A stretch of DNA of 35,311 nucleotides, from the IMG/VR virus record IMGVR_UViG_3300017934_000004, positions 1 through 35,311 of that record; one strand, 5' to 3'. Source of the stretch: a virus. Shown here piece after piece: positions 3,552-25,494 of the stretch. The position numbers and the translations under genes were made by a program. The notes under the pieces are model-generated. The model was not told the origin of the DNA. It saw only the letters and a list, made by a program, of their open reading frames with translations, and searched no databases. Numbering within the stretch: the first letter of the stretch is position 1; each line of letters begins with the position of its first letter.

Positions 3552-3559
3552 GAAATACA

Positions 3560-4896: not shown

Positions 4897-6156
4897 ATGC
4901 GATTCGTTTTTATTTCCGAGCGCACTTTCGAGCCGTGGGATTGGACGAATCCCGAGCTCGCCGGCATCGGCGGTTCGGAAACGTCACACATTGAAATGGC
5001 CCAACGCCTCGCGCGCCGCGGTCATGATGTCATGTCATACGCGCCGCTCGCGCTCGACGAACGCATGGGCATGGCTCGCGTTGCCGGCTACCAAATCCCC
5101 GCGGATAGCTTCACGGACCCTGCAGGCGTGGAGTGGTATCCGATCGAGCGGTTTCTCGAAGTCGTCGGCCGCGCCCATGTTCCCGGCTTAGTGTATGTAA
5201 TCTATCGCGCGCCGCACCTAGTCGATCTACTGCCGGCCGGCTCGATCGCCTGGCTAATCTGCCAGGATACCGATTACACGCGGGCCGACAACCTGCTCGA
5301 CCTCGATCGCGCGAGCCGGTTTACGCGCATCGTCACACTCTGCCAGGCGCAAGCGAAGGCCATGCGGCGCCGGCTCGATTCCCTGCCTGGCTCGAAAGGG
5401 CGCCGCGATAACATCGTAGTTTCCTCGAACGGCATCAAGCGCGAAACCATCGACGCGCTCGAAAATCTTTCAAGGGAAACGCCGTATGCACCTGAGCGGA
5501 ATGAATGCCGGCTCATTTATGCGAGCTCGCCGGATCGCGGCCTAGAAAATCTCTTGCCCATTTTTGAACGCGTGCGCGAAATCGTGCCCAAGGCCGAACT
5601 GCATGTTTGTTATGGCTTCAACAACATAGAGAAAGTCATCCAGCGCATCGACGATCGCGGCTTTAAAAACAATCCGGTCGCGCAAAACCGCGCGCACCTT
5701 CTCGCTGAAATGGAGCGGCTCGGCGTGCATCACTATGGCCGCCTGGGCCAAACCGAATTGCTCGCGCACTGGCTACGATCCGCCGTTTGGTGCCATCCCT
5801 CGAACTTCACTGAAACAAGCTGTATCACTTGCATGGACGCGCAGGCCTGCGGCGCCGTGCCGGTTACTAATCCAGTGTGGGCTATCGGCGAAAACGTCGA
5901 ACACGGCGTTTTTATTGAAGGCGACGTACGCACCGAAGCAATCCGCGCCCGCTATGTTTATGCGGTCGCCGAGCTGCTGTTAAACCCGCAAATGCAGCAG
6001 GAACACCGGGCCGAAATGATGCCCTGGGCTCGCGATCGTTTCAACTGGGAAAGATTCGTCGATCAGTGGGCTATGTGGGCCGCGGGTGACACAGAAAATT
6101 TAGCCTGGCCGGTGACCGAGCAGGAAATGGCCGATTATCCGGGGGTGACACTTTGA
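4897..6156 (+). CDS. Glycosyltransferase, GT-B fold (GT4/GT1-like)
   Basis: N-terminal GIGGSETS..LARRGHDV and C-terminal PSNFTETSCITCMDAQACGAVPV (E-x7-E-like) match the classical group-1 glycosyltransferase pattern. Confidence 0.8.
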   Translation: MRFVFISERTFEPWDWTNPELAGIGGSETSHIEMAQRLARRGHDVMSYAPLALDERMGMARVAGYQIPADSFTDPAGVEWYPIERFLEVVGRAHVPGLVYVIYRAPHLVDLLPAGSIAWLICQDTDYTRADNLLDLDRASRFTRIVTLCQAQAKAMRRRLDSLPGSKGRRDNIVVSSNGIKRETIDALENLSRETPYAPERNECRLIYASSPDRGLENLLPIFERVREIVPKAELHVCYGFNNIEKVIQRIDDRGFKNNPVAQNRAHLLAEMERLGVHHYGRLGQTELLAHWLRSAVWCHPSNFTETSCITCMDAQACGAVPVTNPVWAIGENVEHGVFIEGDVRTEAIRARYVYAVAELLLNPQMQQEHRAEMMPWARDRFNWERFVDQWAMWAAGDTENLAWPVTEQEMADYPGVTL

Positions 6157-6722
6157 CGCCGGTTAAGATGGCTTCGCAAGTCTATCGCGATCAGTTCGGC
6201 TTTCAGCGCGAGCACTCCAAGGGGCGAGTGTTAAACGTGGGCTCGAATACCGACGGCGCCAAACTCGCAGCCGATTTCGGCGCTATCAACGTCGATATGC
6301 GCATCGTCGATCACGTTTCTGGTTTTGTTTTGCCGGTGGCGGTCTTGGCCGATGCGCGCGCCCTACCGTTTGCTGGTGCCTTCGATACGGTGGTACTAGG
6401 TGAAATTCTCGAACACATGGAGCCTGCCGATGCCGTTCGCTCGTTACGCGAGGCAGTCGCGGCGATCCACGACAGCGGCCAGGTGGTTATCACCATGCCG
6501 CACGACGGTCGGCGCGAAACAGGAGAGATCGAAACGCCGCAGGGCGAAAAACAGTTTTATGCGCCAGGCATCTACGCGTATCACTACCGATCCATCAGCC
6601 GGCTAGAGCTGCTCGCGTGGATCCGCGAGGCAGGCTTGCGCGCCGAAGTGATCGCGCGAATTATTTACGTATGGGGTGAGCAGGGATCCGGAATCGTAGC
6701 GCGAAAGTGGTGCGAGGCATGA
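6153..6722 (+). CDS. Class I SAM-dependent methyltransferase
   Basis: Motif I VLNVGSNTDG, acidic loop, then ALPFAGAFDTVVLGEILEHM. TTGA overlap with the GT4 stop after a ggggg SD (alternative ATG at 6168). Confidence 0.75.
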   Translation: MTPVKMASQVYRDQFGFQREHSKGRVLNVGSNTDGAKLAADFGAINVDMRIVDHVSGFVLPVAVLADARALPFAGAFDTVVLGEILEHMEPADAVRSLREAVAAIHDSGQVVITMPHDGRRETGEIETPQGEKQFYAPGIYAYHYRSISRLELLAWIREAGLRAEVIARIIYVWGEQGSGIVARKWCEA

Positions 6723-7465
6723 TCCGGCACAAACTCATCGGCACAGTTGCATACATGGGCGGCACGATGGCCGTGCCGGAAGCCTTCGCCTGGTCCTGGG
6801 GGCAGCTCATGCGGCACACTGAGGCCGTAATTTGCGGGCCTCATGAGCATATCCACCCTACGCGCTCGACGGTGAGCCTGCACGATTGGGGCCGCAACCA
6901 AATCGTCAGCGACCTGCGCGGCGAGTGGCTTTTTATGCTCGACAACGATTTAGCTTTTGAGCCCGACCTATGCGCTCGCATGTTGGCGATCGCGAACCGC
7001 TATGAGCTCGACGTGGTGACCGGAATTTATTCGTACAAGTCGCCGCCTCACTATCCGGTGTTGTATCTCTACAACCATGAAAGCGGGCAAAACGAAATCG
7101 TCGCCGAATGGGAGCGGAGCTGCGAAGTCTTTCGCGTGGATTCTGCCGGTGCCGGCTGCCTGTTCGTTCGCCGCAGTGTGTTCGAGCGGATCGCACGCGA
7201 GCTCAAGGTTAACCCGTTCGATCGGATCGGGCGCAAGGGTGAAGATCATTCGTTTTTCGAGCGGCTGCGCGAGCTCGGAATCCCGGCCTGGTGCGCATGG
7301 AATATCGAAGTACAGCACCTAGCCGTTTTGGGACTTCAAACCTCGGTGCATTTCAAGCCGACGCGCGAGCCCGATCATTACTACGACGGGCAAGGTTTTG
7401 AAAGAGAAGGGGCTGGCGTAAAGGCGCCGCCACAATTGGGAGAAAAGGAGCAACTAGCACTATGA
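6719..7465 (+). CDS. Glycosyltransferase, GT-A fold (GT2-like)
   Basis: DxD-type motif FMLDNDLAFEPD. GAGCLFVRRSVFERI. GEDHSFFERL. ATGA overlap with the methyltransferase stop. Confidence 0.75.
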   Translation: MIRHKLIGTVAYMGGTMAVPEAFAWSWGQLMRHTEAVICGPHEHIHPTRSTVSLHDWGRNQIVSDLRGEWLFMLDNDLAFEPDLCARMLAIANRYELDVVTGIYSYKSPPHYPVLYLYNHESGQNEIVAEWERSCEVFRVDSAGAGCLFVRRSVFERIARELKVNPFDRIGRKGEDHSFFERLRELGIPAWCAWNIEVQHLAVLGLQTSVHFKPTREPDHYYDGQGFEREGAGVKAPPQLGEKEQLAL

Positions 7466-7797
7466 GCGTTACATTAACATACCGGGCGCCTTACAGCTCG
7501 GCGCCGACACTGGTACAGCAGCACTACAAGCCCAAAAACCTTGTGATCGCGACCGTGCTCGCCGGCGCAGCATCCGACGCGCAGGTTATCATCACGCACG
7601 ATTTCGGTCTGACCTCGCAGGATTTGGCGATGGGTTATCCGCTCGTGACGATCACGCCGGAAGATGGGAACTCGATCACTTCGCCATGGTTTGAGGCCTC
7701 GCAGGCCCATGACTACACCGTGCTCGGCAAGAGTACCGTTGACGTTGGCGGTCAAGTCAAGGTCGGCATTTCGCGGCCGCCGACTTCGATCCGTTAA
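7462..7797 (+). CDS. Small beta-rich structural-module protein
   Basis: aaggag SD. ATGA overlap. 111 aa with alternating hydrophobic pattern. Function unknown. Confidence 0.55.
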   Translation: MSVTLTYRAPYSSAPTLVQQHYKPKNLVIATVLAGAASDAQVIITHDFGLTSQDLAMGYPLVTITPEDGNSITSPWFEASQAHDYTVLGKSTVDVGGQVKVGISRPPTSIR

Positions 7798-7807
7798 GCT
7801 CGGCGCC

Positions 7808-8416
7808 ATGAAATCCACCGTGATAGCGGAAATGCTCGGGATCCTCGGCCGTGCCGAGGCTTCCCGAGCACGGAATGAGCTGCCGGCATTCGCGCAACTG
7901 CGGAGCACGCTCGCGGCCGCCTTTGCATTGGGTTTATACACAGACGCGGATCTTGATGTTTCTGTTTTCATTGACGCGCTAGAGCGAGCGCAGTCGGCGG
8001 CCGAGGTTATGATGCCGGCCGCCGCCATCCGCCAGAAGCTAGAGCCGCTCACGGAAGACGAGGCAACGGGTGCGACCGGTATCGAGCTGCAGACCTATCC
8101 GCCGGCGGTCGAAATCCTCCCGATGGCTCTGGCTGAAGCGCAACAGAGTGAGGCGCCGCCGGCGCCGGCCGCTTTGCCTGCGCACGTTATTAGCGTTCTC
8201 ATCGGTATTCTTGACGCGATCGATGAGGCGCAAACATTGGACGACGTAGCGAGGGGCGTCGCCGTGGCACGTCAGTTTTTACACGATGCCGCGGGCACCA
8301 GTGGAATCCGTAAACCCGAGGCGCCGGCGGCCGATCAAACCGCGCCGGCGGAAACCGACCAGGCCGAAGGCGCATCGGCGCCCGAAGTCGAGGCCGAAAA
8401 CGCAGGGGGTAATTAG
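7808..8416 (+). CDS. Acidic Ala/Glu/Asp-rich helical protein (scaffold-like by position and composition)
   Basis: In-frame ATG at 7808 of track ORF 7664..8416. 202 aa, strongly acidic. Lies directly upstream of the basic membrane protein and the capsid-like gene. Confidence 0.5.
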   Translation: MKSTVIAEMLGILGRAEASRARNELPAFAQLRSTLAAAFALGLYTDADLDVSVFIDALERAQSAAEVMMPAAAIRQKLEPLTEDEATGATGIELQTYPPAVEILPMALAEAQQSEAPPAPAALPAHVISVLIGILDAIDEAQTLDDVARGVAVARQFLHDAAGTSGIRKPEAPAADQTAPAETDQAEGASAPEVEAENAGGN

Positions 8417-9249
8417 TGGCAGTTGCGACACGTACGACCATCATCCCTAACCGCGGGCGACGCCGGCCCGCGGTTAGGCCGATCTCGCCGCACAGGAAAC
8501 GTGCGGGGGCAAAGCGGGCGAAAAATCCATCCGATGTGATCGGATGGACTATGAACAAGGGCCGAAAGTCGGCACAGAAAGGGCGAGGTTTTACAATGGC
8601 ACAGAAATCGAAAAAGAAAAAGAAATCCGCGGCCGGCGCGCGGCCTGTCATCATCATGCGGGCGAACACCGGCAAGAAGCAAAACCGGAAAAACGCCGGC
8701 CACCACAAGCATCATCACGCGATGAAGCACAACAGAGGCCGGCATCATCATGTTCGCCATAATATCGGCGGCGGACGGATGCGCGGAGTGAGCGACCTGG
8801 TGATTAACGGTGTTTTCGTGATCGCCGGCGCGTTGGGCTCGAAACTCATCGCGCAAATGGTGCTCGGTGCCAACAACACAGGCATTATGGGGTACGGCGT
8901 GAGTCTCCTCGCCGGCACTGCGCTTTGGTTTGCAACCGACAAGCTCTTGAAGAATCCCGCGGCCTCGGCCGGCGTGATCTCGGGAACGATCGTGCAAATC
9001 ATCATCCGTCTGCTCAACGACTACACGCCTTTCGGCACGTACGTTGCGAGCCTTGGCATGGGTGACTACCAGGCGCAGGCGTTCCTTACGCCTCAAATCC
9101 TGGTCGATCCGTACAAAAACTCCACTATCAAATTTCCCGCGGCTCTCATGCCGCCGGCGCCTAGCGCGCCGCCGCCGTCGAAAACCATGCCGGCGTCGGT
9201 GGGCGTGAGCGGGTTTGATCCGCTCTATGGTGGCCGCAGCATTTACTAA
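8416..9249 (+). CDS. Basic His/Lys-rich protein with hydrophobic C-terminal half
   Basis: TAGTG overlap (alternative ATGs at 8551 and 8596). KKKKK and HHKHHH..GRHHHVRH tracts. 2-3 hydrophobic helices. LGMGD at 9052..9066. Confidence 0.55.
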   Translation: MAVATRTTIIPNRGRRRPAVRPISPHRKRAGAKRAKNPSDVIGWTMNKGRKSAQKGRGFTMAQKSKKKKKSAAGARPVIIMRANTGKKQNRKNAGHHKHHHAMKHNRGRHHHVRHNIGGGRMRGVSDLVINGVFVIAGALGSKLIAQMVLGANNTGIMGYGVSLLAGTALWFATDKLLKNPAASAGVISGTIVQIIIRLLNDYTPFGTYVASLGMGDYQAQAFLTPQILVDPYKNSTIKFPAALMPPAPSAPPPSKTMPASVGVSGFDPLYGGRSIY

Positions 9250-9307
9250 GGGGCTCGCGACTGGCGCGGGCGGCAGTAAAAATTTAAAGAACAAGGGAGC
9301 ACTTGCG

Positions 9308-10057
9308 ATGCACGCGAAACAATTCGATTTCCGTAAACGGCCAACCCTCGAACAGTTGGCCGCGTGGCTTGAAACGCACACGATTGGAGGCGGGGCCTAT
9401 GGCCCCAATCCCAATCAGAACCCCAGCGGCCAGATTCTCGACGCGACCGAGGCGCAGGGCCGCAACACGAACTCGATCATGGAGGGCTGGGTCGATCGTG
9501 GTCCCTGGCAGTACTGGGATACGATTCCATTTATCGCCGGCGCGCAGGTAGCACAAAGCTACTCGCCGTTTTCGGTGCCGATCGGCCAACAGGATCCGAT
9601 CACGAACACCACGAAAACCAAACTGCAGACCAACCTGCAGCGTGGCAACCAATTCCCGCCGCCGAAATGCCTGCTGCTCATGGCAATCGGCTTTTACTTC
9701 GATCCGACCTGGGCGCTTTCCGATATCCAGGCAGTTTTGAACGCATGCTATATGCAGTTCAAAATCGACGACAAGATTTTCCACGAGGGTTTTCTGTGGG
9801 ACTTCCCGCCGGGCGGTGCGATCACCGGCTTTACGCAAAACTCGGGCGATTCGACTTTCACGCTCGGACTGCCGGCGCCGCAGTACCAACGCCGGTATGG
9901 TGATTGGGCGAAGTACATCGCGCCGATTCAGCAATTCTCGATGGACCTGATTTTCGGCGGTGGCGGCGTCGCCATCCCGACGGTAGGCGTCGCCGAGGGG
10001 CCGAATAACTACCTCATCGTGCAGCTCGACGGCCTGACCGATCGGTCGGTACAGTAG
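9308..10057 (+). CDS. Putative major capsid-like beta-sandwich (jelly-roll-like) protein
   Basis: Strong SD aagggag 8 nt upstream. 249 aa, beta-rich. Followed by an 8-bp stem-loop. Has a shorter paralog at 26847..27398. The capsid role is inferred from position, expression signals and strand pattern only. Confidence 0.55.
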   Translation: MHAKQFDFRKRPTLEQLAAWLETHTIGGGAYGPNPNQNPSGQILDATEAQGRNTNSIMEGWVDRGPWQYWDTIPFIAGAQVAQSYSPFSVPIGQQDPITNTTKTKLQTNLQRGNQFPPPKCLLLMAIGFYFDPTWALSDIQAVLNACYMQFKIDDKIFHEGFLWDFPPGGAITGFTQNSGDSTFTLGLPAPQYQRRYGDWAKYIAPIQQFSMDLIFGGGGVAIPTVGVAEGPNNYLIVQLDGLTDRSVQ

Positions 10058-10067
10058 CTCCGGGTCT

Positions 10068-10098
10068 GCGCCTGGTGTTTACTCTCCTTGCCAGGCGC
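10068..10098 (+). terminator. Stem-loop downstream of the capsid-like gene
   Basis: gcgcctgg (10068..10075) pairs with ccaggcgc (10091..10098) around a 15-nt loop. There is no U-tract, so it may be an attenuator or RNA-stability element rather than a canonical terminator. Confidence 0.4.
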
Positions 10099-10186
10099 GC
10101 GCTAACCCGAGGGCAGGCGCGGCGGCCGTTTACGTTCAGGCAGCGGTCGCCGTGGCTGTTCTCTTTTTGAGTTTCTGGAGGCCTTT

Positions 10187-10813: not shown

Positions 10814-11188
10814 ATGTTCGAGGGACTCCGACAAGCCGATGCTGTGCTCGACGCCTGCGGGCGTGAAGTCGCGCCGCCGGGCTACAAGTTTGTGGACCTT
10901 CCTTATGTCATTCCACAGAAAGCGACGTTTACCAGTGGCGGCCCGACGCCGTTTCAAATCCGCGTGAAAAACAACGGGCTCACGGCGTTCCGCTGTAAGG
11001 GCATCGTGATCGATTGCATCTTACCGATCCGTATAAAGTGGCCGTCGGGCCGCTATCTCGCTCAGGGGCCGAGCTGGCCGGGCTCGGCTGGCTCGCCCAT
11101 CGGCGCCGGTGGAAACTTGATCGCGCTGAACGAGGAAGTCGAGATTGAAAGCGGCGCGAATATCGTCATCGAGGTTTCGCAGCCATGA
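10814..11188 (+). CDS. Truncated beta-sandwich domain protein (paralog of the N-terminal domain of 13942..14937, lacking the last strand)
   Basis: Roughly half of aligned residues are identical to 13942 aa 8-135 (VLDACGR..PPGY..VDLP, F-x-C-[KR]-G, IRI[KR]WP.GRYL.QGP, IALxxExEIExGAxIxIE). It ends at IEVSQP, before the IQFWGV strand. Confidence 0.65.
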   Translation: MFEGLRQADAVLDACGREVAPPGYKFVDLPYVIPQKATFTSGGPTPFQIRVKNNGLTAFRCKGIVIDCILPIRIKWPSGRYLAQGPSWPGSAGSPIGAGGNLIALNEEVEIESGANIVIEVSQP

Positions 11189-12315
11189 CCGAAATAGTAG
11201 ATTCCTTCGGCCTGTACGTGCTTACCTCGGTGAGCCCTGGCGCGAGCCAGAACTCGCTTACCACGTTTTGGAATGCGATCGGGCCTGGTGGTTTCACTAT
11301 GGGCGTGCAGGCTGGCGCCGGCGACCGTGGCAATCCGGCGCTTTATCTTCCGTTCGGCGCCGCGATTTGCAAAACAGTTTCGCATCAGCCGACATACACG
11401 CTCGGCCTCCGCGTTTCAATGAGCTGCGTCGCCGGCGTCGGCGGCGGATCTTCTTTTCTTCAGTTCTGCAACTGCGGTTTCGCGCTCTGCTCTCTCCGCG
11501 TGAACCCCGATGGCTCGATTCTGGTCTACGGAAACAATGTCGGTAGCACTGTGATTTTCACGGCGCCGGCGGGCACCTTGACGGCGGCGACGCAAACCTA
11601 TCTCGAATTGACGGCGACCGTCACGGCCGATGTGCTCGGCGACATGAGCGTAACGGCCGAGGCTTGGGTCAACTCAGTTTCGATCGGCAGCGGATCCGCT
11701 GCGCTCGGCCGGAACATCAGCACGCTCAAAAATGCGGCTGCGAATTTCAACCAGATTTTCATTTTTTCCGGCGTCGCGACGAACGGCCAGGCGTTTGTGT
11801 CCGACCTGTACCTAAACAATGGGCAAGGGCCGACGAACACCGGCCGGCTCTCGCTTTTGCCGCCGAATAATACGGCGCCGTTTGTGATCGTTGAGCCGCT
11901 TGTACCTAACGCTGACACATCGCCGCTCAATTGGACGCCGCTCGCGCCTGGCCCGCACTTCAGCGAGATCAACGAGGTTCCCGCCGACGGCGATGCGTCT
12001 TACAACTTCGCGGCGGCCGCGGCAGCCGGCACGATCGACAATTACCGCTGGCAGCCGATCTCTACTTTTGTAGGAACCGTGCAATCGGTGCAGCTCCGCT
12101 ATCAGGCGCGCTCGACCGCGGCCGGTCCGGCCGGCTATCGTTCGACTGTAGGAATCGGCGGGATCGAGGCGACGGGACAAAAAGCCGGGCTCTGTAGTTC
12201 CTATACTTACCAGGGCTCGCAGACATTCGACCTTGATCCGCGTACCGGGCTGCCCTGGGCACAGCCGAATTTTAACTTGAAACCGTTCGGCGTCGAAGTG
12301 GTGGCACTGCCATGA
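11185..12315 (+). CDS. Fibre/spike-like protein, LamG/concanavalin-like N-terminal domain (inferred)
   Basis: ATGA overlap at both ends. 376 aa, beta-rich, Gly/Asn/Thr-rich. Composition is typical of phage receptor-binding proteins. No direct motif proof. Confidence 0.5.
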   Translation: MTEIVDSFGLYVLTSVSPGASQNSLTTFWNAIGPGGFTMGVQAGAGDRGNPALYLPFGAAICKTVSHQPTYTLGLRVSMSCVAGVGGGSSFLQFCNCGFALCSLRVNPDGSILVYGNNVGSTVIFTAPAGTLTAATQTYLELTATVTADVLGDMSVTAEAWVNSVSIGSGSAALGRNISTLKNAAANFNQIFIFSGVATNGQAFVSDLYLNNGQGPTNTGRLSLLPPNNTAPFVIVEPLVPNADTSPLNWTPLAPGPHFSEINEVPADGDASYNFAAAAAAGTIDNYRWQPISTFVGTVQSVQLRYQARSTAAGPAGYRSTVGIGGIEATGQKAGLCSSYTYQGSQTFDLDPRTGLPWAQPNFNLKPFGVEVVALP

Positions 12316-13955
12316 GCCTGCTGTACGACGACGATTTCCAGAGCTATGCAGTCGGCGCATTCCCGCCTTATGGAAACCTGTTTAATATCGCGATTATTGC
12401 GCCGAAGATCGCAAACAGTGTCCCGCCTGGTGGCGTTTTTGGTGCCGCCAAGTACGTTAACATGGCCTCGCTGCCGAGCCTCATCTGGCCGACGACGACA
12501 CCTTCGACGGCACTACCGGCTTACTCTGAATTTTCCGTTTTCCAGCACGTGCTCATCCTGGGCGGCCAGGGGAGCGATGAACAGGGCGCGATTTTGCAGT
12601 TCAATTGCAACCTAAGCCCATTCGCAGGCATAAGCCTCGCTGCGCTGCGCGTTCTCTCCGATGGAACTCTCGCATTTACGGCACCGCAGAGCTCGGCCTT
12701 TTCTCCGAATCAGTTTGTTTCAAACGATTCGATTCTGGTCAATGCCTGGTACTCGATCCAGACCAACGTTCGGTTTTTCGCGGCCGGTGCATTCGTCGGC
12801 GTCGATGTCGAGGTAGCGATCAATAACAAGTCGGTTTTTGCCGGCAGTTTCGTGACCACTCAAACGGTGGCATCGCTGCCGGCCCTATTCGTAAACAATC
12901 TAATTTTCGGTGGACTCGGCGGCGGCTGCGCTTATGGCCGTATCACCGTTTCTGATACAATCCTCCCGATCGGCGCCGATCCCCATGCCGGCACACCCGA
13001 CGTGCGTGTGACGCAAGGCGCGATCGAGCTCATACTCGCGGCGTCTGGTGGCCTGCCGGTGCCAGTGTGCCCTATCGGTGGCGGTAACGCGACGGTCGGG
13101 CAACTCTACAACAAGACATTGACCGCAAGCGGCGGCATTCCGCCTTACACCTGGAATGTAACCGGCCTGCCGCCCGGCATCACATTCAATCCGGTAAGCG
13201 GGCAATTGCTCGGGATCCCGACCACGCCAGGCACGTTTACATACCTGGCGACGGTTACCGACCTGGCGACGGCGATGGGCTCGGTTAACTGCACGATTGT
13301 AGTCGTCGCCTCGCTCACCGTCGATATTCAGTTTTGGGGCGTGCTCCGTTTCCTGGTGCCGGTTGGATCTGGCGACGGCGACGCCGCTGAGTATTCGGCG
13401 ATCGGGCGCCAGGCATTACGCAGCCTGGCCGCGATCGCGCTTAGGGCGGCCTCAGTGCTGCTCGACCAGTTGGCGCGCACCCTGGCGCCGGCGAGCTCAG
13501 GGCGCCGCCTGCAGCTCGCCGCGTCGCCGGCGTCGGCCGTTAAAATTCCGATCCCTATGCCGGCCGCTCTGGAAACTGCAGCGGATAAGTGCAACTTGCG
13601 ACCGTTTGTGCAACCGGTTGCACAAACGACGCGAGAAACAAATGAGTTAGGTATATCCTTAACACTATCATCGCCTCGCATTCGCTTTTCTGGCGGTTTC
13701 AGTTTTTCTTGGCGGCCATTCGTGCAACCGGTTGCACAAACGACGCGAGAAACAAATGAGTTAGGTATTCCCTTAACACTATCATCGCCTCGCATTCGCT
13801 TTTCTGGCGGTTTCAGCTTTTCTTGGCGGCCATTCGTGCAACCGGTTGCACAAACGACGCTAGAAACAAACGGCTTAGGTATTTTACCCTGCCATTTGGC
13901 AGGGGCTCATAAAACGCCGACGTTTTTAGGGGAGGGTATCAGTGGCGCAGCTTAG
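12312..13955 (+). CDS. Fibre/spike-like protein with Ig-like (He_PIG-type) domain; 3' third reads through a 114-bp repeat array
   Basis: Residues 248-332 (13053..13307), containing GQLYNKTLTASGGIPPYTWNVTGLPPGITFNPVSGQLLGIPTTPGTFTY, match the putative Ig domain consensus. VDIQFWGVLRF at 13320..13352. No stop until 13953. GC3 falls from about 75 to about 38 percent inside the repeats, so the real C-terminus is uncertain. Confidence 0.55.
   Translation: MSLLYDDDFQSYAVGAFPPYGNLFNIAIIAPKIANSVPPGGVFGAAKYVNMASLPSLIWPTTTPSTALPAYSEFSVFQHVLILGGQGSDEQGAILQFNCNLSPFAGISLAALRVLSDGTLAFTAPQSSAFSPNQFVSNDSILVNAWYSIQTNVRFFAAGAFVGVDVEVAINNKSVFAGSFVTTQTVASLPALFVNNLIFGGLGGGCAYGRITVSDTILPIGADPHAGTPDVRVTQGAIELILAASGGLPVPVCPIGGGNATVGQLYNKTLTASGGIPPYTWNVTGLPPGITFNPVSGQLLGIPTTPGTFTYLATVTDLATAMGSVNCTIVVVASLTVDIQFWGVLRFLVPVGSGDGDAAEYSAIGRQALRSLAAIALRAASVLLDQLARTLAPASSGRRLQLAASPASAVKIPIPMPAALETAADKCNLRPFVQPVAQTTRETNELGISLTLSSPRIRFSGGFSFSWRPFVQPVAQTTRETNELGIPLTLSSPRIRFSGGFSFSWRPFVQPVAQTTLETNGLGILPCHLAGAHKTPTFLGEGISGAA
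13594..13885. repeat. Tandem repeat, 114-bp unit, about 2.6 copies
   Basis: Units 13608..13721 and 13722..13835 are 111/114 identical. A third partial unit starts at 13836. Each begins with the palindrome GTGCAACCGGTTGCAC. Confidence 0.9.
13608..13851. promoter_or_regulatory. Three copies of the 16-bp palindrome GTGCAACCGGTTGCAC, 114 bp apart
   Basis: Exact copies at 13608..13623, 13722..13737 and 13836..13851, upstream of the gene starting at 13942. Confidence 0.7.
13887..13926 (+). other. Two short hairpins between the repeat array and the 13942 start
   Basis: ccctgcc-attt-ggcaggg (13887..13904) and aaaacg-ccga-cgtttt (13911..13926), followed by a ggagg SD. Confidence 0.4.
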
Positions 13956-14937
13956 AATGCAACCGCTACGTGAGGCCGATATGGTGCTCGACGCGTGCGG
14001 CCGGCGGCAACCGCCGCCGGGTTACCGTTGGGTCGATTTACCGGCCGTGCTGCCGTTCAACTGGTCACAATTCGCGACCGTAGCGCCAGTGACGCCGGCG
14101 CAGGGACGCGTTGCCAACAATTCCAAGGCGAATTTTATTTGCCGCGGCGTGATGATTCAGAGCCCGGTCGGTGTGCGGATCCGCTGGCCTGGCGGCCGCT
14201 ATCTCTCGCAAGGGCCTACTTGGGTCGGCGTGCCGACCGTGCCGGGCAATCCGATCGCGACCGGCGGAAGTATGATCGCGCTCGACAGCGAGCAGGAAAT
14301 CGAGCGCGGCGCAAAAATCGCGATCGAAATGTCGGGCGGCACTGCCGGCCTGGTTAATATACAATTTTGGGGCGTGCGACGGTACTTACTTATGCAACCG
14401 AAAAACGGCGGCGCCGGCAGCTCGCCGGCGATGATTCCGGATCCGATCGACGAGCTGGAAGCACGGCCACGCTATCGGTGCGGGCCGCCTCAGAACATCA
14501 TGGCGCCCGAGTGGTACCTCGGAAACCAATGCACGCCGGAAACGCCGGCAGGTTACGAAGATGAGCCCTTTACATTCTTCTCGCCGCCGATCACCGTGCC
14601 CGTCGCAAAGCAGAATTTCAATAACGCCGTGATCGTGCCCGGCGGCGACGATGTGATTATCCGGCGGTACCGGGCAATCACCGATTACAGCGGGCTCGGT
14701 GGAGCCAGCTCGACGATTCCGGTATTCTCGCTGCGGCTGCCTAATGGCTATTCAGTCACCGGCGGCGATCTTGTTCCGACGCCGTTTCTGTTCTGGATCC
14801 CGATGTTTCCGACGATCCGCCTGCATCCCGGCGATCGGATCATACTCGACGTGGCCGACATGCAACCGGTCGGTACGGGCTCGGTGACGACGACGTTTGA
14901 ATTTGAGGGCGTGAAACGGAGGAAACTCATAGTATGA
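13942..14937 (+). CDS. Two-domain beta-sandwich protein (domain family F-x-[CL]-R-G .. F-x-G-x-[KR])
   Basis: GTG start 6 nt after ggagg. Domain 1 has FICRGV, IRIRWPGGRYL, AKIAIEM, VNIQFWGVRR. Domain 2 has VIIRRYRAI, FSLRLPNGY, LHPGDRIILDV, FEFEGVKRR. Confidence 0.7.
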   Translation: MAQLRMQPLREADMVLDACGRRQPPPGYRWVDLPAVLPFNWSQFATVAPVTPAQGRVANNSKANFICRGVMIQSPVGVRIRWPGGRYLSQGPTWVGVPTVPGNPIATGGSMIALDSEQEIERGAKIAIEMSGGTAGLVNIQFWGVRRYLLMQPKNGGAGSSPAMIPDPIDELEARPRYRCGPPQNIMAPEWYLGNQCTPETPAGYEDEPFTFFSPPITVPVAKQNFNNAVIVPGGDDVIIRRYRAITDYSGLGGASSTIPVFSLRLPNGYSVTGGDLVPTPFLFWIPMFPTIRLHPGDRIILDVADMQPVGTGSVTTTFEFEGVKRRKLIV

Positions 14938-15779
14938 AAATGCCGTGCCAGTTTCCGCGGGATCTTTTCAAGCCGCAATTTGCTTATGCGACGCCGCAGG
15001 GTTACCGCGATGAACCCTACTGGATCCCGTTCAAATTCACCATACCGGCCGACGGCAATATCCATTTAGGCCTACCTTGGTCGCTCGACGACGACGTGCC
15101 TTTTATCCTACGCGGCGTGATCTTCCCGGCGATCGGCACGGCGCAACCTGGCGCGAACACGATCCCGCCGACGGCATTCCCTGCCCTGTGCCGGATGCGC
15201 GATACGGAGGGGAATGCGCTGCAGGATACGCTAGTGCTCGCGCTCGGCGTATGGGCTCAATCCGGCTTTGCTCCGACGACGACGCCGACCGGCATCAACG
15301 CATTCGGTTTTCCTGTGGAGCCGGAAGTTTTGTGCGCGCCGGGCGGCACAATCATTTTCGATTTTCAAATTCCAACCGATGCAGTGCCGGCGACGCTGTC
15401 GCACACGGTCGGCGGTTCGACGGTGGTTTTCGCGGCCGCGGTGTACGGCCTGGCAGGCAACGCTTACACCATCCAGTTTACAAATCCTGGTGCACCTAGC
15501 GTGCCGCTTTCGGTCGCCGTCGTCGGCAATGCGGTAAACGTCACGCTCGCCACTAACGGCGCCTCAGTGATCGTAACCACGATCGCGCAAGCCGCCGCGG
15601 CGATCAATTCAACGCTCGCGGCCCTGGCGCTCATGGGCGCCGTCGTCACTGTCGGCGGCTCTGACCTCGCGACGGCCTTCGGGCCAACAAATCTAGCCGG
15701 CGGCCTGGCGCAAGTCGGCGCCGGCGTCGTACTGACCGGGACTATGATCGGCGTCAAACGCTTTCCGGAGTGTGACTAG
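14934..15779 (+). CDS. Beta-sandwich domain protein with inserted Ala/Val/Thr-rich module
   Basis: ATGA overlap. PQGYRDEPYW, FILRGVIF, CRMRDTEGNAL, PGGTIIFDF. About 110 aa are inserted before the last strand, LTGTMIGVKRF. Confidence 0.7.
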   Translation: MKMPCQFPRDLFKPQFAYATPQGYRDEPYWIPFKFTIPADGNIHLGLPWSLDDDVPFILRGVIFPAIGTAQPGANTIPPTAFPALCRMRDTEGNALQDTLVLALGVWAQSGFAPTTTPTGINAFGFPVEPEVLCAPGGTIIFDFQIPTDAVPATLSHTVGGSTVVFAAAVYGLAGNAYTIQFTNPGAPSVPLSVAVVGNAVNVTLATNGASVIVTTIAQAAAAINSTLAALALMGAVVTVGGSDLATAFGPTNLAGGLAQVGAGVVLTGTMIGVKRFPECD

Positions 15780-15781
15780 CA

Positions 15782-16666
15782 ATGATTCAACGCCATCAGG
15801 ATTATCAACTCACGATTCCGGTCGTGCCGCCAGGCGGCCTGAATGATTTGCCGCTGAAGCTCGACACGGATGCGCCTTTCGCGTTGCGCCTGGTCAAATC
15901 GCGGAACCTCGGGCTCTCTGGTTTTCGTTTTGAAACGCCGCGGCGCCAGTGGCAGAGCTCAGGGCTCACTACTGACCTTATTCCGCAAGCGCCAGGCGCG
16001 ACACTTCCAAATCCGCAACCATCGCGCGGGCGGATCCTCTATCCCGAGCTGGTCTATCCGATCGGCGGGACCATTGTTTGTTCGGTCGGCAACACCACGA
16101 ACTCGAACCTCACAAACGTAAAGCTGCTATTCCGTGGCTCGAAACTTTTCCCCGACGGTGCGATCCCGTCGCCGACCTATCCGGCGAAAATGTCGGTTTT
16201 GCCGTTCCTGTATCCGCCGAGTGAAACGGTGTTAGTGAACGTGCCGGCAGTGACGGCGCCGGCAATCCGAAACGTGCAGCTCCGCAACAAAACCGACGCC
16301 GATTTCGTGCTGCGCTATGGCGTCTGTGATCCATTCACTCTCGGGATCGACGGCGGCCCGTACCGGCCGTTTAATTACACCGAGCTGTATGTGCAGCTCC
16401 GCGATGAAGGCTATAAGGCCTATTCGAATGAGCCGATCCACGTAAACGACCTTTTCGGGCAAGGGCAGCCGCGGCCATTTCAAACCTCCGTCGCCGGCCT
16501 TCCGGTGAATGATGACGACGTTGTTTTCCTGCCAAACGTGTTCACGCCTGAGATTTACATTTTGCGCGATCACTCGATTTACTTCGACGTGTACCGCAAT
16601 GATCCCGGTAGTGGCCCGGTCGATTTGCATTTTCGATTTCAAGGAAGTAAGGTGTTTTCACGATGA
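15782..16666 (+). CDS. Two-domain beta-sandwich protein
   Basis: Domain 1 has FALRLV, FRFETPRRQW, PIGGTIVCSV, LLFRGSKLF. Domain 2 has FVLRYG, LYVQLRDEGY, EIYILRDHSIYFDV, FRFQGSKVF. Confidence 0.7.
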   Translation: MIQRHQDYQLTIPVVPPGGLNDLPLKLDTDAPFALRLVKSRNLGLSGFRFETPRRQWQSSGLTTDLIPQAPGATLPNPQPSRGRILYPELVYPIGGTIVCSVGNTTNSNLTNVKLLFRGSKLFPDGAIPSPTYPAKMSVLPFLYPPSETVLVNVPAVTAPAIRNVQLRNKTDADFVLRYGVCDPFTLGIDGGPYRPFNYTELYVQLRDEGYKAYSNEPIHVNDLFGQGQPRPFQTSVAGLPVNDDDVVFLPNVFTPEIYILRDHSIYFDVYRNDPGSGPVDLHFRFQGSKVFSR

Positions 16667-17145
16667 GTTTATCCAGCCTGGCCCTTGATTCGAGCTGGCG
16701 CGATTACGCCGGCATGTGGAATCCGCTGATCGAGCCGCAAATGGCGCCGATCGAGAAAAGCCCATGCCATGCGCCGCGGCTCGCCCTGGTGCCCGACATT
16801 CTAAACCAGGTGGTGCCGGCGAGCGGCAAGATTCAGTACAACTTTCATCTTGTGCCGGGCTCGCTGATTTGGGGTTTCTTCCCTGGTCAAATGTCGAGCC
16901 TCGATATGGTCGTGCAGCTTACCGATGTCGAGCTGGGGCACCAGTTGTTTCAGGATCCAGTCACGGTCAAGTTTTTGTTGACCGTCGGCGCCAATGCCGG
17001 CCGGTTCCCGTCCTATACCCTGCTGCCGGCGCCGCACCCGGTTATCGGCGACGGCTTATTTACGCTCGAAGTGTGGGGCAACGCCGGCGATGTGGCCGCC
17101 CTAATTCTCGGCGTCGCGGAGGTAACCGATTGCAACGTAAAGTGA
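16663..17145 (+). CDS. Single beta-sandwich domain protein (divergent member)
   Basis: ATGA overlap. MVVQLTDVELGHQLF, IGDGLFTLEV, ALILGVAEV follow the family strand order. Confidence 0.6.
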   Translation: MSLSSLALDSSWRDYAGMWNPLIEPQMAPIEKSPCHAPRLALVPDILNQVVPASGKIQYNFHLVPGSLIWGFFPGQMSSLDMVVQLTDVELGHQLFQDPVTVKFLLTVGANAGRFPSYTLLPAPHPVIGDGLFTLEVWGNAGDVAALILGVAEVTDCNVK

Positions 17146-17642
17146 TTACGCCTGGGCCGTCGCTGGTCACGGCCGCCCGCGCGATCGCCGGCGCGGATCC
17201 GCGGAACGCGATCGGCACGTATCCCTATCAGTGGCTCTTTCCTGGGCCGCATTCGCGCAACGTGACCGCTCAAAATACGGTCGCGCTTTCCGGACCTGGC
17301 TTTACTGATTTGATTCTGCAGTACGTCGTACCCGATGGCGAGATTTTTTCATGCCGCGGTGTTGTCGTCGGTTTCATCGGCACTGGTTGGAGCGAAGGCA
17401 GCACACAGCTAGAATGGACTCTTAGCGTTACCGCGGCCGGCACGCGCAAAGTGGATTTTTTTGCCAACATCAGAACGCATCTGGGGTCGCTGGAGTCGCC
17501 TTACCCGGTTCTCGGCAGGCTCGAATTTGCTCCGCTCAGTGTTTTGCAGTGGACCGTACAAAACACCGGCGGGCCGTCGGCGGGCACGTTCAGTTTCGCG
17601 CACCTGGTCGGGCACACTTATCCGCAAGTCGAGGCGGCTTAA
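17130..17642 (+). CDS. Single beta-sandwich domain protein
   Basis: 3' part of track ORF 16716..17642. TTG at 17130 lies 7 nt after ggagg (alternative GTG at 17142 in a GTGA overlap). FSCRGVVVG, LEWTLSV, LQWTVQN, FSFAHLVGH. Confidence 0.55.
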   Translation: MQRKVITPGPSLVTAARAIAGADPRNAIGTYPYQWLFPGPHSRNVTAQNTVALSGPGFTDLILQYVVPDGEIFSCRGVVVGFIGTGWSEGSTQLEWTLSVTAAGTRKVDFFANIRTHLGSLESPYPVLGRLEFAPLSVLQWTVQNTGGPSAGTFSFAHLVGHTYPQVEAA

Positions 17643-18413: not shown

Positions 18414-19478
18414 ATGGCAATCGCTCCAGTAGCTCACGCGACCGCGGCGGGGCCGAATAGTGCGACGACACCAGCGCAGGACACGAGCACTGCGAATCTC
18501 ATAGTCCTTTCGGCCTTAACCGGGCCGCTCGCGGTGGGGCCGGCCGTGCAGGATAGTAACCATAACATCTGGACGCCGCTCAACGGAAACCGCGGCGGCG
18601 GATTTTTCTGGAATCAGTTTTTTTACTGCATTAATCCAGTTGTCGGGCCGGGCCACACGTTCACCATAAACGATGCCGGCGGTTTCGGCTCTATCCAGAT
18701 GACGGCCTGGAGTGGCGCCGCGGGAGGCTTCGACTTACAAGGGGCTGATTTTGGCGGATCGACAACGCAGCCACTCACTCCGAGCGTAAACGGATGCCTC
18801 GTTGTCGCTTCCTACGTCGGCAGCAATGACATAACAAGTGTCAATCTTCCCTTCGCTCTCAGCGATACCGAGCCGTTTACCGGCGGCGTCAATTACGCCT
18901 CGGGCACGGCTTTCGTCATCCAAACGACGGCCATCCTGGCGCAGTGTACGTTTAACGGAGTCGGCTCAGGCGGTCCGCTGTCAATTGCATCTTTCAAACC
19001 GTCGGCAACGGCTACCACGATCACGCCACCAGCAGGCGCACTCGCGACGGCCACATTTGCGCCACTGCTCACCGATACGATCACGCCAGGCGCCGCGGCT
19101 CTCGCGATCGCGACCTTTGCGCCAGCACTGATCGGCGGATTATTGGTGCCGACCGGTGCGCTCAGCCTGCAAGGTTTCGCGCCGGCTCTGACGCGCACAA
19201 TACCGGTGCCAGCGGGCGCGCTTACGCTCGCGACCTTCGCCCCGCTGCTGGGCGAGGTAGTCGGGCCAGTGCCGCCGGCTCATCTGGTGCTGACAACCTA
19301 TGCGCCGAAACTGGTGTTTTCATTTGGGCCGGCTGCCGGCAATCACGCCGCCGCCTGGTGGTGGAGCGGCGCGGCGGCGCGCATGATAAACGATGCCGGT
19401 TTTCAACTGCTGGTGGAGCCGCACTTACAGAATGAGAATTACACCGGCGAGCCGCAACCGGATGAGGGCGCGCCATGA
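18414..19478 (+). CDS. Fibre-like protein with five 20-aa tandem repeats
   Basis: 354 aa. Globular N-terminal domain, then 5 x (I/V)xPxAGALxLATFAPxLxxx. Confidence 0.65.
   Translation: MAIAPVAHATAAGPNSATTPAQDTSTANLIVLSALTGPLAVGPAVQDSNHNIWTPLNGNRGGGFFWNQFFYCINPVVGPGHTFTINDAGGFGSIQMTAWSGAAGGFDLQGADFGGSTTQPLTPSVNGCLVVASYVGSNDITSVNLPFALSDTEPFTGGVNYASGTAFVIQTTAILAQCTFNGVGSGGPLSIASFKPSATATTITPPAGALATATFAPLLTDTITPGAAALAIATFAPALIGGLLVPTGALSLQGFAPALTRTIPVPAGALTLATFAPLLGEVVGPVPPAHLVLTTYAPKLVFSFGPAAGNHAAAWWWSGAAARMINDAGFQLLVEPHLQNENYTGEPQPDEGAP
19020..19319 (+). repeat. Five in-frame 60-bp tandem repeats inside 18414..19478
   Basis: Units start at 19020, 19080, 19140, 19200 and 19260. The first two share atcacgcca and all share the ..gcgc.ct....c.....c.t..gcgcc core. 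Confidence 0.8.
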
Positions 19479-19506
19479 TTGCGAAGGCGATTTCGAGGGC
19501 TGTTTC

Positions 19507-20121
19507 ATGAACCTTGCCGCCATCAGGCCGCGCCGGCAAATGCCGCACCCGGTACTTTACGCGCCGCGGCGCCGCGGCGGCCTGGCCGGCTACGGCCTAG
19601 GCGTCGTGCAAGTGCTTGCACCGTCGCAAACGGCTACGATCGCGAGCACGATTCAGCAAGTCGAGGGCTACTATCCTGGCTCGCTCGCGTATCAGAATAA
19701 CAACCCTGGAAACCTGGTCTACGTCGGCCAGACAGGGGCCTCGCCCGGCGCCGGCGGGTTTGCGCAATTCCCGAGCTACTCGGCCGGCCTGCAGGCGCTC
19801 GACGATCAGATACAACTCTATGCCGCCCGCGGCATGACGATTTCTCAAATGATGAACACGTACGCGCCGGCCTCGGCCGGCAATAATCCGACAGCGTACG
19901 CGAACCAAATCGCCGGCGCGCTCGGTGTGGATCCATCAACCTCGCTGCTCGACCTGGCTGGGTTTTCGACCAGCTCGCCGGCGCCGCTGCCTGCCCTGCC
20001 CGATGTCTCGACGTGGGCGAGCTGGCTACCGGACTTTTCGAGTATCGACCCGTCGAGCCTGGCAATGATCGCCGGCGGCCTGCTGCTCGGAATTGTTGTG
20101 CTCAACGTCACCGGCGACTAG
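19507..20121 (+). CDS. Tail-anchored protein with NNNPGN motif domain (possible cell-wall-active or virion-associated protein)
   Basis: In-frame ATG at 19507. Basic leader ..RRRGGLAGYGLGV. YQNNNPGNLVY..GFAQFPSYSAGLQAL..YAP..NNPTAYANQIA. C-terminal helix LAMIAGGLLLGIVVL. Confidence 0.55.
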   Translation: MNLAAIRPRRQMPHPVLYAPRRRGGLAGYGLGVVQVLAPSQTATIASTIQQVEGYYPGSLAYQNNNPGNLVYVGQTGASPGAGGFAQFPSYSAGLQALDDQIQLYAARGMTISQMMNTYAPASAGNNPTAYANQIAGALGVDPSTSLLDLAGFSTSSPAPLPALPDVSTWASWLPDFSSIDPSSLAMIAGGLLLGIVVLNVTGD

Positions 20122-21447: not shown

Positions 21448-21509
21448 CGCGCGCGAGGCCGTGCCGTTTGAATTTTATGAACAGACTGGCAGCGGTTCCG
21501 AGCCGTCCC

Positions 21510-21521
21510 GCAACCGGTTGC
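21510..21521. promoter_or_regulatory. Seventh copy of the palindrome core GCAACCGGTTGC
   Basis: Exact 12-bp core about 90 nt upstream of the gene starting at 21614. Confidence 0.6.
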
Positions 21522-24535: not shown

Positions 24536-24846
24536 GACCGGGCCGCCTTAGTGCGCGACCTGGCGCCGGCGGCCGCGATCGCCGCGGCGTTCGATCGACG
24601 CCGACGGAAGGGCAGCGGCGCCGATGGAATTCGACGAAATGCGTTCATGAGCGCGCCGGTTCTCATCTCATACGCAACCTCGGCATAGTCGAGCAGGTGC
24701 GCTAGGATTTCGGCGCAATTCGAGCAAAGCGGCGCCGTCCCGAGGGCCTTTTCTTGTGCTGGGCCGGCCCAACTGCAGCCATTGGCACACGCGCGATCGT
24801 AACTACAGCGGCAAATCTTACAACGTGGCATCAGATTTCCTTTCAT
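24532..24846 (-). CDS. Cys-rich small protein
   Basis: CKICRC .. C..GC .. C..C arrangement with a basic C-terminal tail. Confidence 0.5.
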   Translation of the reverse strand: MKGNLMPRCKICRCSYDRACANGCSWAGPAQEKALGTAPLCSNCAEILAHLLDYAEVAYEMRTGALMNAFRRIPSAPLPFRRRRSNAAAIAAAGARSRTKAARS

Positions 24847-25261: not shown

Positions 25262-25442
25262 GGTCGCGGCCGTACAAACTGCCGTCGGCGTGGATCCCTC
25301 TCGACACTGGAAGGCGTAACGATGTTGGCGCCGCGGGCTCGGGCCTGGTAGCGATCGCGAGCAGCGCGGCGATAATCCCGATGCCGGCATTTGAAACGGT
25401 GAAGCGTTCGGGCTCTTTAACGTGCGGCTCGTAGACGAGCAT
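25251..25442 (-). CDS. Possible small membrane protein
   Basis: In-frame ATG at 25442 of track ORF 25251..25517. Helix AGIGIIAALLAIA. GC3 about 70 percent. Fills the gap between 25495 and 25261. Confidence 0.3.
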   Translation of the reverse strand: MLVYEPHVKEPERFTVSNAGIGIIAALLAIATRPEPAAPTSLRLPVSRGIHADGSLYGRDHAD

Positions 25443-25494
25443 GAAAATTGAGCCGACTGCCCAACATAGAGGGCGACGATGTGCACTAGTTTTC

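Follow-up and report, generated by a model that had tools for sequence, protein, structure and literature searches.

Virion complexes built from paralogous jelly-roll proteins are already known from Sulfolobus turreted icosahedral virus (STIV), from the P31/P5 pair of PRD1 and from sphaerolipoviruses. In STIV, A223 with two jelly rolls and C381 with three are stacked into a turret at the fivefold vertices, where C381 attaches to host pili (PMC10551542). Host binding falls to the outer domains, and the virus has a membrane anchor protein and circular double-stranded (ds) DNA and encodes glycosyltransferases (PMC10551542). Here, we analysed the IMG/VR virus record IMGVR_UViG_3300017934_000004 (35,311 nucleotides (nt), hereafter the window), in which four, probably five, genes lying close together between g10814 and g17130 (the array) encode six to seven diverged copies of one small beta-sandwich domain. 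By analogy, the STIV turret would be the closest described counterpart of this array: in both, several jelly rolls are spread over consecutive structural proteins, 2 + 3 in STIV and 2 + 1 + 2 in the core described here. However, there is no sequence similarity between the two, STIV has the double-jelly-roll protein B345 and the FtsK/HerA ATPase B204, neither of which is recognisable in the window, the host is here probably a soil bacterium and not Sulfolobus, and the vertex location is here a proposal.

In PRD1, the spike protein P5 and the penton protein P31 have an N-terminal domain in common, so that a paralogue of a shell protein carries a receptor-binding extension, and the same logic may apply to the array. 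Two jelly rolls per chain and a weak Foldseek match to P3 are further likenesses, whereas a 50-residue disordered linker, the lack of a packaging ATPase, the lack of sequence similarity, a template modelling (TM) score of 0.20-0.24 and a circular genome of 35 kb, against a linear one of 15 kb, separate the window from PRD1. In the sphaerolipovirus type (P23-77), the paralogous single jelly rolls VP16 and VP17 build one assembly side by side and are seen as what double-jelly-roll proteins would be without fusion; in the family studied here, the domains are fused or separate depending on the genome, and there are five to seven paralogues without a packaging ATPase, in contrast to two paralogues with one. 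The Portogloboviridae, with Sulfolobus polyhedral virus 1 (SPV1), combine a circular dsDNA genome and a nucleoprotein core with an internal membrane, a shell of single-jelly-roll proteins and vertex complexes, and the SPV1 genes with an assigned function include a glycosyltransferase and a methyltransferase as the only enzymes and no packaging ATPase (PMC8459092). The window is likewise circular, with two glycosyltransferases (GT1 and GT2) and a methyltransferase as the only recognised enzymes, no ATPase, very basic proteins and small membrane proteins, but there is no significant sequence or structure match to SPV1, which has a 20-kb genome, infects hyperthermophilic archaea and is not described with a tandem array of paralogues, while bacterial hosts are indicated here. 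The window is unusual in how many paralogues it has, in that their fusion state varies within one family, in its genome without an ATPase and in a recurrent split domain.

Domain copies and fold of the array proteins

Ortholog profiles were built from 75 related loci, and domain slices were compared with HHalign. An all-versus-all BLASTP comparison gave one clear pair, g10814 and amino acids (aa) 6-131 of g13942 (52% identity over 126 aa, E-value (E) 7e-39). By HHalign, six domains were mutually related, namely g10814, the two domains of g13942 (g13942-N and g13942-C), the N-terminal domain of g14934 (g14934-N) and the two domains of g15782 (g15782-N and g15782-C). The probability was 69-100% and E lay between 4.5e-5 and 1e-50 for 13 of the 15 pairs, and the remaining two, g10814 with g15782-N and with g15782-C, were connected via other domains only. 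The matches include g10814 with g13942-N (100%, E 1e-50), g13942-N with g13942-C (92%, E 5.5e-7), g14934 with both domains of g13942 (96%, E 1.5e-9), g15782-N with g15782-C (93%, E 4e-7), g15782 with g14934-N (95%) and g15782-C with g13942-C (95%). Iterated hidden Markov model (HMM) searches independently joined g10814, g13942, g14934 and g15782, while the operon controls g8416, g9215, g10187, g11185 and the N-terminal part of g12312 stayed below 1% against the domain in HHalign. Descent from one ancestral beta-sandwich domain by tandem duplication and partial fusion is thus supported. The original prediction, made from the letters of the window, had counted eight to nine copies in one family. 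Its open reading frames (ORFs) and coordinates are as it described them, the pairwise HHalign comparison it had suggested gave significant similarity among the six domains, and its ordered strand motifs are visible in the multiple alignment as PxGY..D.P, F.xRG, hRhR.P.G, P.h.h..G..I.h.h and h.F.G.K. The repeat is therefore real, with a lower count of six firm copies and a probable seventh.

The members differ in architecture (Table 1). In g13942, the linker between the two domains carries the nearly invariant motif RPRYxCGPNQNIMAPE, the most conserved motif of the protein. The last ~15 aa of g14934 match the final strand of the family (E 0.004), and many g14934 orthologues are 155-180 aa long and lack the insertion that precedes this strand. 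We rejected the idea that the C-terminal ~130 residues of g14934 are a further domain copy, as they consist of this insertion and the displaced final strand. The two domains of g15782, recognised by HHalign, abut directly, and g15782 is the best-conserved member of the array, with a ratio of non-synonymous to synonymous substitution rates (dN/dS) of 0.09. The inclusion of g16663 in the family did not hold up: every HHalign comparison with a domain gave less than 7%, and a merged superfamily profile did not recruit this gene, which is conserved in 32 loci. As for g17130, its assignment is borderline and lies in the twilight zone. Its motifs occur in the expected order, and it aligned collinearly with g14934-N over 119 columns (HHalign 63%, E 7e-5), with 43% and E 2.4e-4, and thus no gain, when a deeper profile of 74 sequences was used, and 27% and E 7e-4 against the merged superfamily profile. 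From this profile evidence, g17130 is probably a seventh, highly diverged member.

Pfam and PHROG scans, which covered every array gene and almost all of the remaining ORFs of at least 96 aa, gave no match for the domain itself. PDB sequence-profile searches with the g13942 and g9215 families found no match either. In an HMM search of 1.84 billion representatives, only 210 proteins matched, apparently all of this family except for a spurious DUF11 repeat protein, and there was no annotated distant relative among them. The domain is a new sequence family with a known fold class.

We modelled g13942 with AlphaFold2 (AF2) from a 54-sequence alignment. The model (mean predicted local distance difference test (pLDDT) 81, predicted TM-score (pTM) 0.45) shows two 8-stranded beta-sandwiches joined by a linker of ~50 residues with a pLDDT below 50; given this linker and the pTM, the orientation of the two domains is undefined. 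Foldseek searches of PDB and BFVD with this model returned E of ~1e-5 to 1e-3 and TM-scores of at most 0.28, and the matches were Cry-toxin C-terminal domains, CBM22 tandems, peptidylglycine monooxygenase (PHM), the P3 protein of PRD1/PR772, birnavirus VP2, the GC1 capsid protein and phage minor tail or fibre proteins. P3 matched with E 2e-4 to 2e-3, a probability of 0.77-0.97 and a root-mean-square deviation of ~20 Å, and was outscored by Cry toxins, CBM22 and PHM, which are unrelated tandem beta-sandwiches. The Foldseek result on this model fixes the fold class, jelly-roll-like, but not the family. The jelly-roll-like fold proposed at the outset is borne out by the two 8-stranded sandwiches and by the tandem jelly rolls found with Foldseek, which include P3. 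The suggested likeness to TNF/C1q is not: the array domains share a compact jelly roll of ~130 aa with these proteins, but none of them was among the best 50 Foldseek matches of g13942, in Pfam or in the PDB profile search, and C1q/adiponectin appeared for g9215, outside the array, with a non-significant E of 0.14-0.6. A specific match to PRD1 was likewise not obtained.

The split domain of g10814 and g12312

In chaperone-usher pili, an incomplete beta-sandwich is completed by a strand of another polypeptide, which links the subunits. We found a comparable layout in the window. The domain of g10814 is of the g13942-N type and stops after the penultimate strand (...GANIVIEVSQP*), so that it lacks the final strand. 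A final strand without a domain, VDIQFWGVLRFLV, occurs 2.1 kb downstream of g10814, in frame with g12312 and directly after its He_PIG immunoglobulin (Ig) domain. This orphan strand matches the final strand of g13942-N, VNIQFWGVRRYLL, with 69% identity over 13 aa in BLASTP, and was also detected by HHalign (E 1.6e-5) and by HMM (independent E 1e-4). It is the only match of g12312 to the domain family. The fibre-like g12312 consists of an N-terminal part that matches nothing, the He_PIG Ig domain (aa 257-331, nt 13080-13304, Pfam E 4.5e-10), the orphan strand and a low-complexity tail that runs through tandem repeats. Between the two halves lies g11185, which matches phrog_2448 (function unknown, E 1.5e-12) and whose homologues in the distantly related loci L046, L057 and L068 also come after a truncated domain gene.

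A simple pseudogene remnant was considered and rejected. Across three genomes the dN/dS of g10814 is 0.15-0.28, a purifying selection like that on intact genes, indicating that g10814 is a functional gene, and no decayed C-domain was found behind the orphan strand of g12312 in any of the three frames. Moreover, the split layout recurs with different cassettes and different paralogue types in L003, L024, L037/L039, L046, L057 and L059 (Table 1). In L024, the stop codon of the truncated gene is directly followed by the ATG of a 589-aa protein that is composed of a cassette, the strand FYFWGVLRF, the linker and a complete C domain, and the split pair adjoins an intact 306-aa paralogue. In L037/L039, an intact 155-aa paralogue ending in WEFRGVKRY comes next. 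In the deep clade, the truncated domain is followed by a g11185-like protein in L046 and L057, and the fibre or Ig protein of L046, L057 and L059 ends in ...IRITLRGVKLRR, IRITFRGVKRTR or IKITFRGVKVVK, with a conserved P.VKRA tail. In every case, the type of the orphan strand is the type of the truncated partner.

Judged from these sequences, g10814 and g12312 may form one domain that is complemented in trans and anchors an exchangeable fibre. The likeness to chaperone-usher pili would concern the split domain only, g10814 being the part without the last strand and g12312 the carrier of that strand. The pilin is Ig-like, whereas the array domain is jelly-roll-like, and the donated strand is an N-terminal extension in pili but stands C-terminal to the fibre protein here. 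Complementation is here a proposal by analogy.

The 3' tail of g12312 holds 2.5 tandem copies of a 114-nt unit (13598-13882), each with the palindrome TTTGTGCAACCGGTTGCACAAAC. The near-identical contig L001 has one repeat fewer, its g12312 ORF being 509 aa long, and L003 has PFVQPVA-coding repeats too. The palindrome is also found at 28202-28236, ~330 nt upstream of a replication gene resembling lambda O (28564-29637), and as a partial copy at 21493-21521. It may be an operator, an iteron or a recombination site.

Synteny, insertions and the proposed surface complex

All loci of sufficient length (>30 loci) have their genes in the sequence g8416-g9215-[variable]-g13942-g14934-g15782-g16663-g17130, with g8416 always upstream of g9215, and g10814 is a lineage-specific extra copy. 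The core of the window has two domains in g13942, one in g14934 and two in g15782. The two most distant relatives, L076 and L077, organise the same domains differently, L076 as three single-domain genes and one double, and L077 as five single-domain genes in which the halves of g15782 are separate. As the number of domains (five, plus g17130) is constant and the fusion state variable, we argue for an assembly of fixed stoichiometry.

Large insertions are tolerated by the array proteins. In the window, 117 aa precede the last strand of g14934. In-frame insertions of 90-430 aa follow the first strand of g13942-N in L013, L017, L028, L030 and L078, FG-GAP or BNR propellers are inserted in other array homologues, Ig-domain and other cassettes are attached to array homologues, and the g16663 orthologue of L010 has an insertion of ~425 aa. 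By comparison, g15782 keeps a length of 275-325 aa with almost no insertions. The wedge of a jelly roll has its B-C and H-I loops at one and the same end, so that a single exposed face could accommodate both insertion sites.

An Ala/Val/Thr-rich module (...ITV.LATxGG..ITTT...LAAAI......ALV.A...) was observed in the window (15375-15725), in L078 (13414-14823) and in L024 (11334-12107). In g14934, its loop is the one that precedes the last strand, and in g13942 homologues the one that follows the first. Its presence in different loops of different paralogues indicates that it moves between display sites.

Upstream of the array, g9215 encodes an unrelated beta-sandwich (AF2 pLDDT 76) that does not have the HK97 fold. 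No other protein of the family comes near it in sequence conservation: it has 312 homologues, the 120 listed ones being 56-100% identical, a median identity of 58% as compared with 40-53% for the array genes (56% against ~30% in L037), a dN/dS of 0.08 and orthologue lengths that vary little. Foldseek gave no significant match for g9215 (best E 0.08), and its non-significant list is dominated by single-jelly-roll coat proteins, including the SPV1 chain 6oj0_Z (E 0.23, TM-score 0.25-0.33) and VP17 (E 0.51). We regard g9215 as a candidate for the major (bulk) capsid protein, and as a better candidate than the array.

A distant paralogue of g9215 appears to be encoded on the - strand at 26847-27398, where a 183-aa ORF with a twin-arginine-like signal peptide adjoins the serine recombinase gene; its HHalign comparison with g9215 gave 51%, E 1.5e-4 and 29% identity over 90 columns. 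This protein could be a secreted decoy or a superinfection-exclusion protein. Right after g9215 there is a sizeable intergenic gap (10058-10186), one of few in the structural operon, with terminator-like hairpins at 10060-10075 and 10142-10160, which would fit an expression of g9215 above that of the downstream genes. A promoter and terminator scan gave no excess over shuffled sequences.

The explanation we put first, with somewhat less than even confidence, is that the array forms a surface or vertex complex, turret- or spike-like, of diverged jelly-roll paralogues around a bulk shell of g9215. The original prediction of a vertex, spike or capsid component names the most reasonable class for a virus-like genome without tailed-phage hallmarks. 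From ~8.4 to 21.4 kb, the + strand carries one dense gene run in which many adjoining start and stop codons overlap, also through the array genes, and these genes would be co-expressed from a single translationally coupled operon. An 8-stranded jelly-roll-like sandwich was duplicated in tandem, with variable fusion, to give g13942, g14934, g15782, probably g17130, and g10814, and the products most likely co-assemble in fixed stoichiometry into a virion surface or vertex complex. Two loops, one following the first strand and one preceding the last, would be display sites, and the Ig-like, beta-propeller and small alpha/beta modules grafted there presumably have a host-binding role. In the split copy, g10814 would give all strands but the last and g12312 the last strand, and g12312 probably docks onto g10814 by strand complementation in trans. 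The conservation of g9215 and the insertions and attached cassettes of the array argue that the array is peripheral and host-facing and g9215 the bulk shell.

Several points weigh against this explanation. The family is known from metagenome sequences, and the candidate capsid role of g9215 is based on its conservation and the non-significant Foldseek list. The structural matches of g13942 are generic, with capsid proteins scoring no better than CBM22, Cry-toxin domains, PHM or phage tail proteins. Neither A223 nor C381 of STIV was among the 50 best PDB matches of g13942 in Foldseek, and no PDB sequence match to them was obtained. A further point is the compact build of g15782, with its abutting domains, almost no insertions and a low dN/dS.

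These last features are among those that would fit a different role, in which the array itself is the main capsid lattice. The fused proteins, above all g15782, would then be small double-jelly-roll major capsid proteins, or five to six jelly rolls would form hetero-capsomers, comparable to the sphaerolipovirus pair or to picornavirus VP1-3, with g9215 as penton or another component. The Foldseek matches to P3 and to the GC1 major capsid protein and the stable length of g15782 are in line with such a lattice, the five domains and g17130 together amount to six, as many jelly rolls as a pseudo-hexameric capsomer contains, and the variation between single and double domains mirrors the proposed origin of double-jelly-roll capsid proteins. 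We nevertheless consider a lattice rather unlikely. The most conserved structural candidate is clearly g9215, the domains of g13942 are unpacked in the model and separated by the disordered linker, insertions of hundreds of residues and fibre cassettes poorly suit a close-packed subunit, and the TM-scores to P3 are low. Furthermore, to our knowledge all known double-jelly-roll viruses are accompanied by an FtsK/HerA-type packaging ATPase, and the genome has none: across its full length, none of the plausible ORFs contains a Walker-A or P-loop NTPase motif, and the Pfam and PHROG scans gave no ATPase match. We also rejected a pseudo-T=7 asymmetric unit of one g9215 and six array domains, as by our own estimate such a shell would not have room for 35 kb of dsDNA.

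A plasmid or other non-viral replicon, with the array proteins as secreted or cell-surface sandwiches of the carbohydrate-binding or adhesin type, would explain why no virus hallmark genes were found, why the Foldseek matches include CBM22, surface glycan-binding proteins and galactose-binding-like domains, and why glycosyltransferases and a methyltransferase are the only recognised enzymes. It is unlikely all the same, with a slim chance at best. Searched with tblastn, the 72,556 plasmid records of PLSDB hold no relatives, and in 185,579 GTDB species genomes the g13942 profile had no match and the g9215 profile met two contigs only, of 41 and 43 kb. The distribution of genome sizes is narrow, the array proteins lack signal peptides, conjugation and partition ATPases are absent, and the tightly coupled operon, the basic membrane protein and the many small membrane proteins are as in membrane-containing viruses; relatives carry an SLT lysis-type gene, and IMG/VR lists three of them as viral. 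A very divergent tailed phage, whose tail-fibre or baseplate proteins the array would encode, is essentially excluded. Many BFVD matches are minor tail or tail-fibre proteins, and tail fibres typically carry receptor-binding modules of the Ig-like and propeller kinds, but the Pfam and PHROG scans found no terminase large subunit, portal, HK97 capsid, tail protein or polymerase, a tape-measure protein and a tail tube were likewise not found in the complete genome, P-loop ATPases are missing and g9215 models as a beta-sandwich, so that this idea is near refuted. The best fit is a tailless virus that assembles around its own genome.

Beyond the surface or vertex complex, a more far-reaching proposal, which we regard as possible though doubtful, is that the window represents a lineage of soil-bacterial viruses that has not been described before, ATPase-less, membrane-containing and built from jelly rolls. 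It would be nearest in architecture to the archaeal portoglobo- and turriviruses, with five to seven paralogues in varied fusion and a split jelly roll that works as a plug-in socket. In this socket, a truncated domain of the g10814 type would sit in the particle and be completed by the C-terminal-side strand of an exchangeable fibre of the g12312 type. If this is true, host-range modules could be swapped as gene cassettes with the shell protein untouched, and the split domain, which recurs in deep branches, would be a new attachment mode for exchangeable receptor-binding proteins. If the products are virion proteins, they add a bacterial, mesophilic branch to the few ATPase-less viruses with single-jelly-roll shell or vertex proteins. 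The array is also a natural series from separate genes to fused two-domain proteins, and the single-to-fused step is assumed in the origin of double-jelly-roll capsids but rarely seen within one family.

The element, its relatives and further genes

A 67-nt exact direct repeat stands at both ends of the window (1-67 = 35245-35311), showing that the assembly is circular at ~35,244 bp; the window is a complete circular genome of ~35.2 kb. The near-identical contig L001 (35,230 bp) comes from another assembly. We gathered 88 g13942 homologues, none of them named, three IMG/VR loci and 70 metagenome loci. Relatives are common in soil and peat metagenomes, and their contigs cluster at 32-38 kb and 43-46 kb. 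None was found in GenBank phages by tblastn, and the family is not described in the literature found by our searches. The element is widespread in soil and peat, yet none of its ~30 proteins has a family assignment, and the profiles built here would allow it to be picked out in viromes.

The two GTDB contigs were binned into a Phycisphaerales and a Terriglobia metagenome-assembled genome; as they are probably whole viral genomes, the bins give no reliable host. A bacterial host is indicated by the SLT lytic transglycosylase downstream of the array in relatives and by a protein with a bacterial-type DnaA C-terminal helix-turn-helix domain in the window. The host is probably a soil bacterium, and the element probably an uncultured tailless virus of soil bacteria. 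In L078/L079, the SLT gene lies at 18789-19319; its equivalent in the window (19393-20121) lacks a Pfam match and has the motif EGYYPG...NNPGNL. The 71-kb contig L079 is 99.9% identical to the 34.7-kb circular relative L078 from position 8698 onward, and unrelated genes (PIN, DUF4279, a CLC channel fragment) lie upstream of it. L079 is either an integrated copy with host flank, which could reveal the host, or a chimeric assembly.

Table 1. Features of the window and of split loci in relatives (nt positions; aa positions within the protein)
Feature	Position	Strand	Description
GT1	4897-6156		recognised enzyme
Methyltransferase	6153-6722		recognised enzyme
GT2	6707-7465		recognised enzyme
g8416	8416-9249	+	strongly basic N-terminus, hydrophobic segments
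g9215	9308-10057 (true start 9308)	+	249 aa; unrelated beta-sandwich, N-terminal arm
g10814	10814-11188	+	124 aa; g13942-N-type domain, ends right after the penultimate strand
g11185	11185-12315	+	376 aa; cassette protein between the split-domain halves; not a domain member
g12312	12312-13955	+	547 aa; cassette protein, fibre-like
Orphan final strand VDIQFWGVLRFLV	13320-13358	+	g12312 aa 337-349
g13942	13942-14937	+	331 aa; two-domain member
g13942 N domain	14023-14394		aa 28-151; AF2 model
g13942 linker			aa 152-204; conserved, predicted disordered
g13942 C domain	14554-14925		aa 205-328; AF2 model
g14934	14934-15779	+	281 aa; single-domain member, body aa 4-147
g14934 insertion	15375-15725		aa 148-264; in-frame, ~117 aa
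g14934 final strand	15726-15764		aa ~265-277; ...TGTMIGVKRF
g15782	15782-16666	+	294 aa; two directly abutting domains
g15782-N	15782-16159		aa 1-126
g15782-C	16163-16663		aa 128-294
g16663	16663-17145	+	160 aa; conserved gene within the array
g17130	17130-17642	+	170 aa; TTG start, same call in near-identical contig
L003 split pair	7678-10004		123-aa truncated domain, then unrelated 652-aa protein with ...VNVIFCGVVRFMIL
L024 split pair	11334-13877		257-aa truncated N domain, stop codon then ATG directly, 589-aa protein
L037/L039 split pair	L037 11456-13370		138-aa truncated g14934-type domain, then 342-aa Ig protein ending MEFRGVKRTVCN
Deep-clade split loci	L046 9147-11226; L057 14909-18306; L059 15233-17632		truncated g14934-type domain first

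The Pfam and PHROG matches in the genome comprise He_PIG, GT1, GT2, the methyltransferase, a serine recombinase, DnaA_C, phrog_2448 and a weak replication-O-like match, that of the lambda-O-like initiator. Large ORFs without an assignment lie at 3548-4894, 32160-33725 and 33870-35141. In the left arm there are many small membrane proteins rich in proline and alanine, together with a very basic protein of 448 aa (3548-4894). The N-terminal two-thirds of the latter are extremely basic, and the protein, which has no family match, is a candidate DNA-condensing or nucleoprotein component.

Downstream of the array, a 354-aa protein (18414-19478) looks fibre-like, with a globular N-terminal domain followed by about five 20-aa repeats (ITPxxGALxhATFAPxL, 19017-19244); its match to phrog_38872 is weak (E 0.001). 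An ORF on the - strand of the early region (24818-25525), without a Pfam match, has an HNH-like motif (CEAC...HRNH...CQWCH). The ORF at 33870-35141, also without a Pfam match, shows a Cys/His/Asp pattern recalling transglutaminase-like proteases. This last ORF shares with four other small membrane or structural-looking proteins (747-1532, 2701-3186, 3126-3551 and g8416) the motif G-[MV]-G-[DAY], which occurs six times in these five proteins, usually after arginines (RGMGY, RRGVGDY, RRGMGDY, LGMGDY, RGMGA and RRGVGDT). Its first glycine is invariant across the g8416 family, and the motif may serve in maturation cleavage or in docking.

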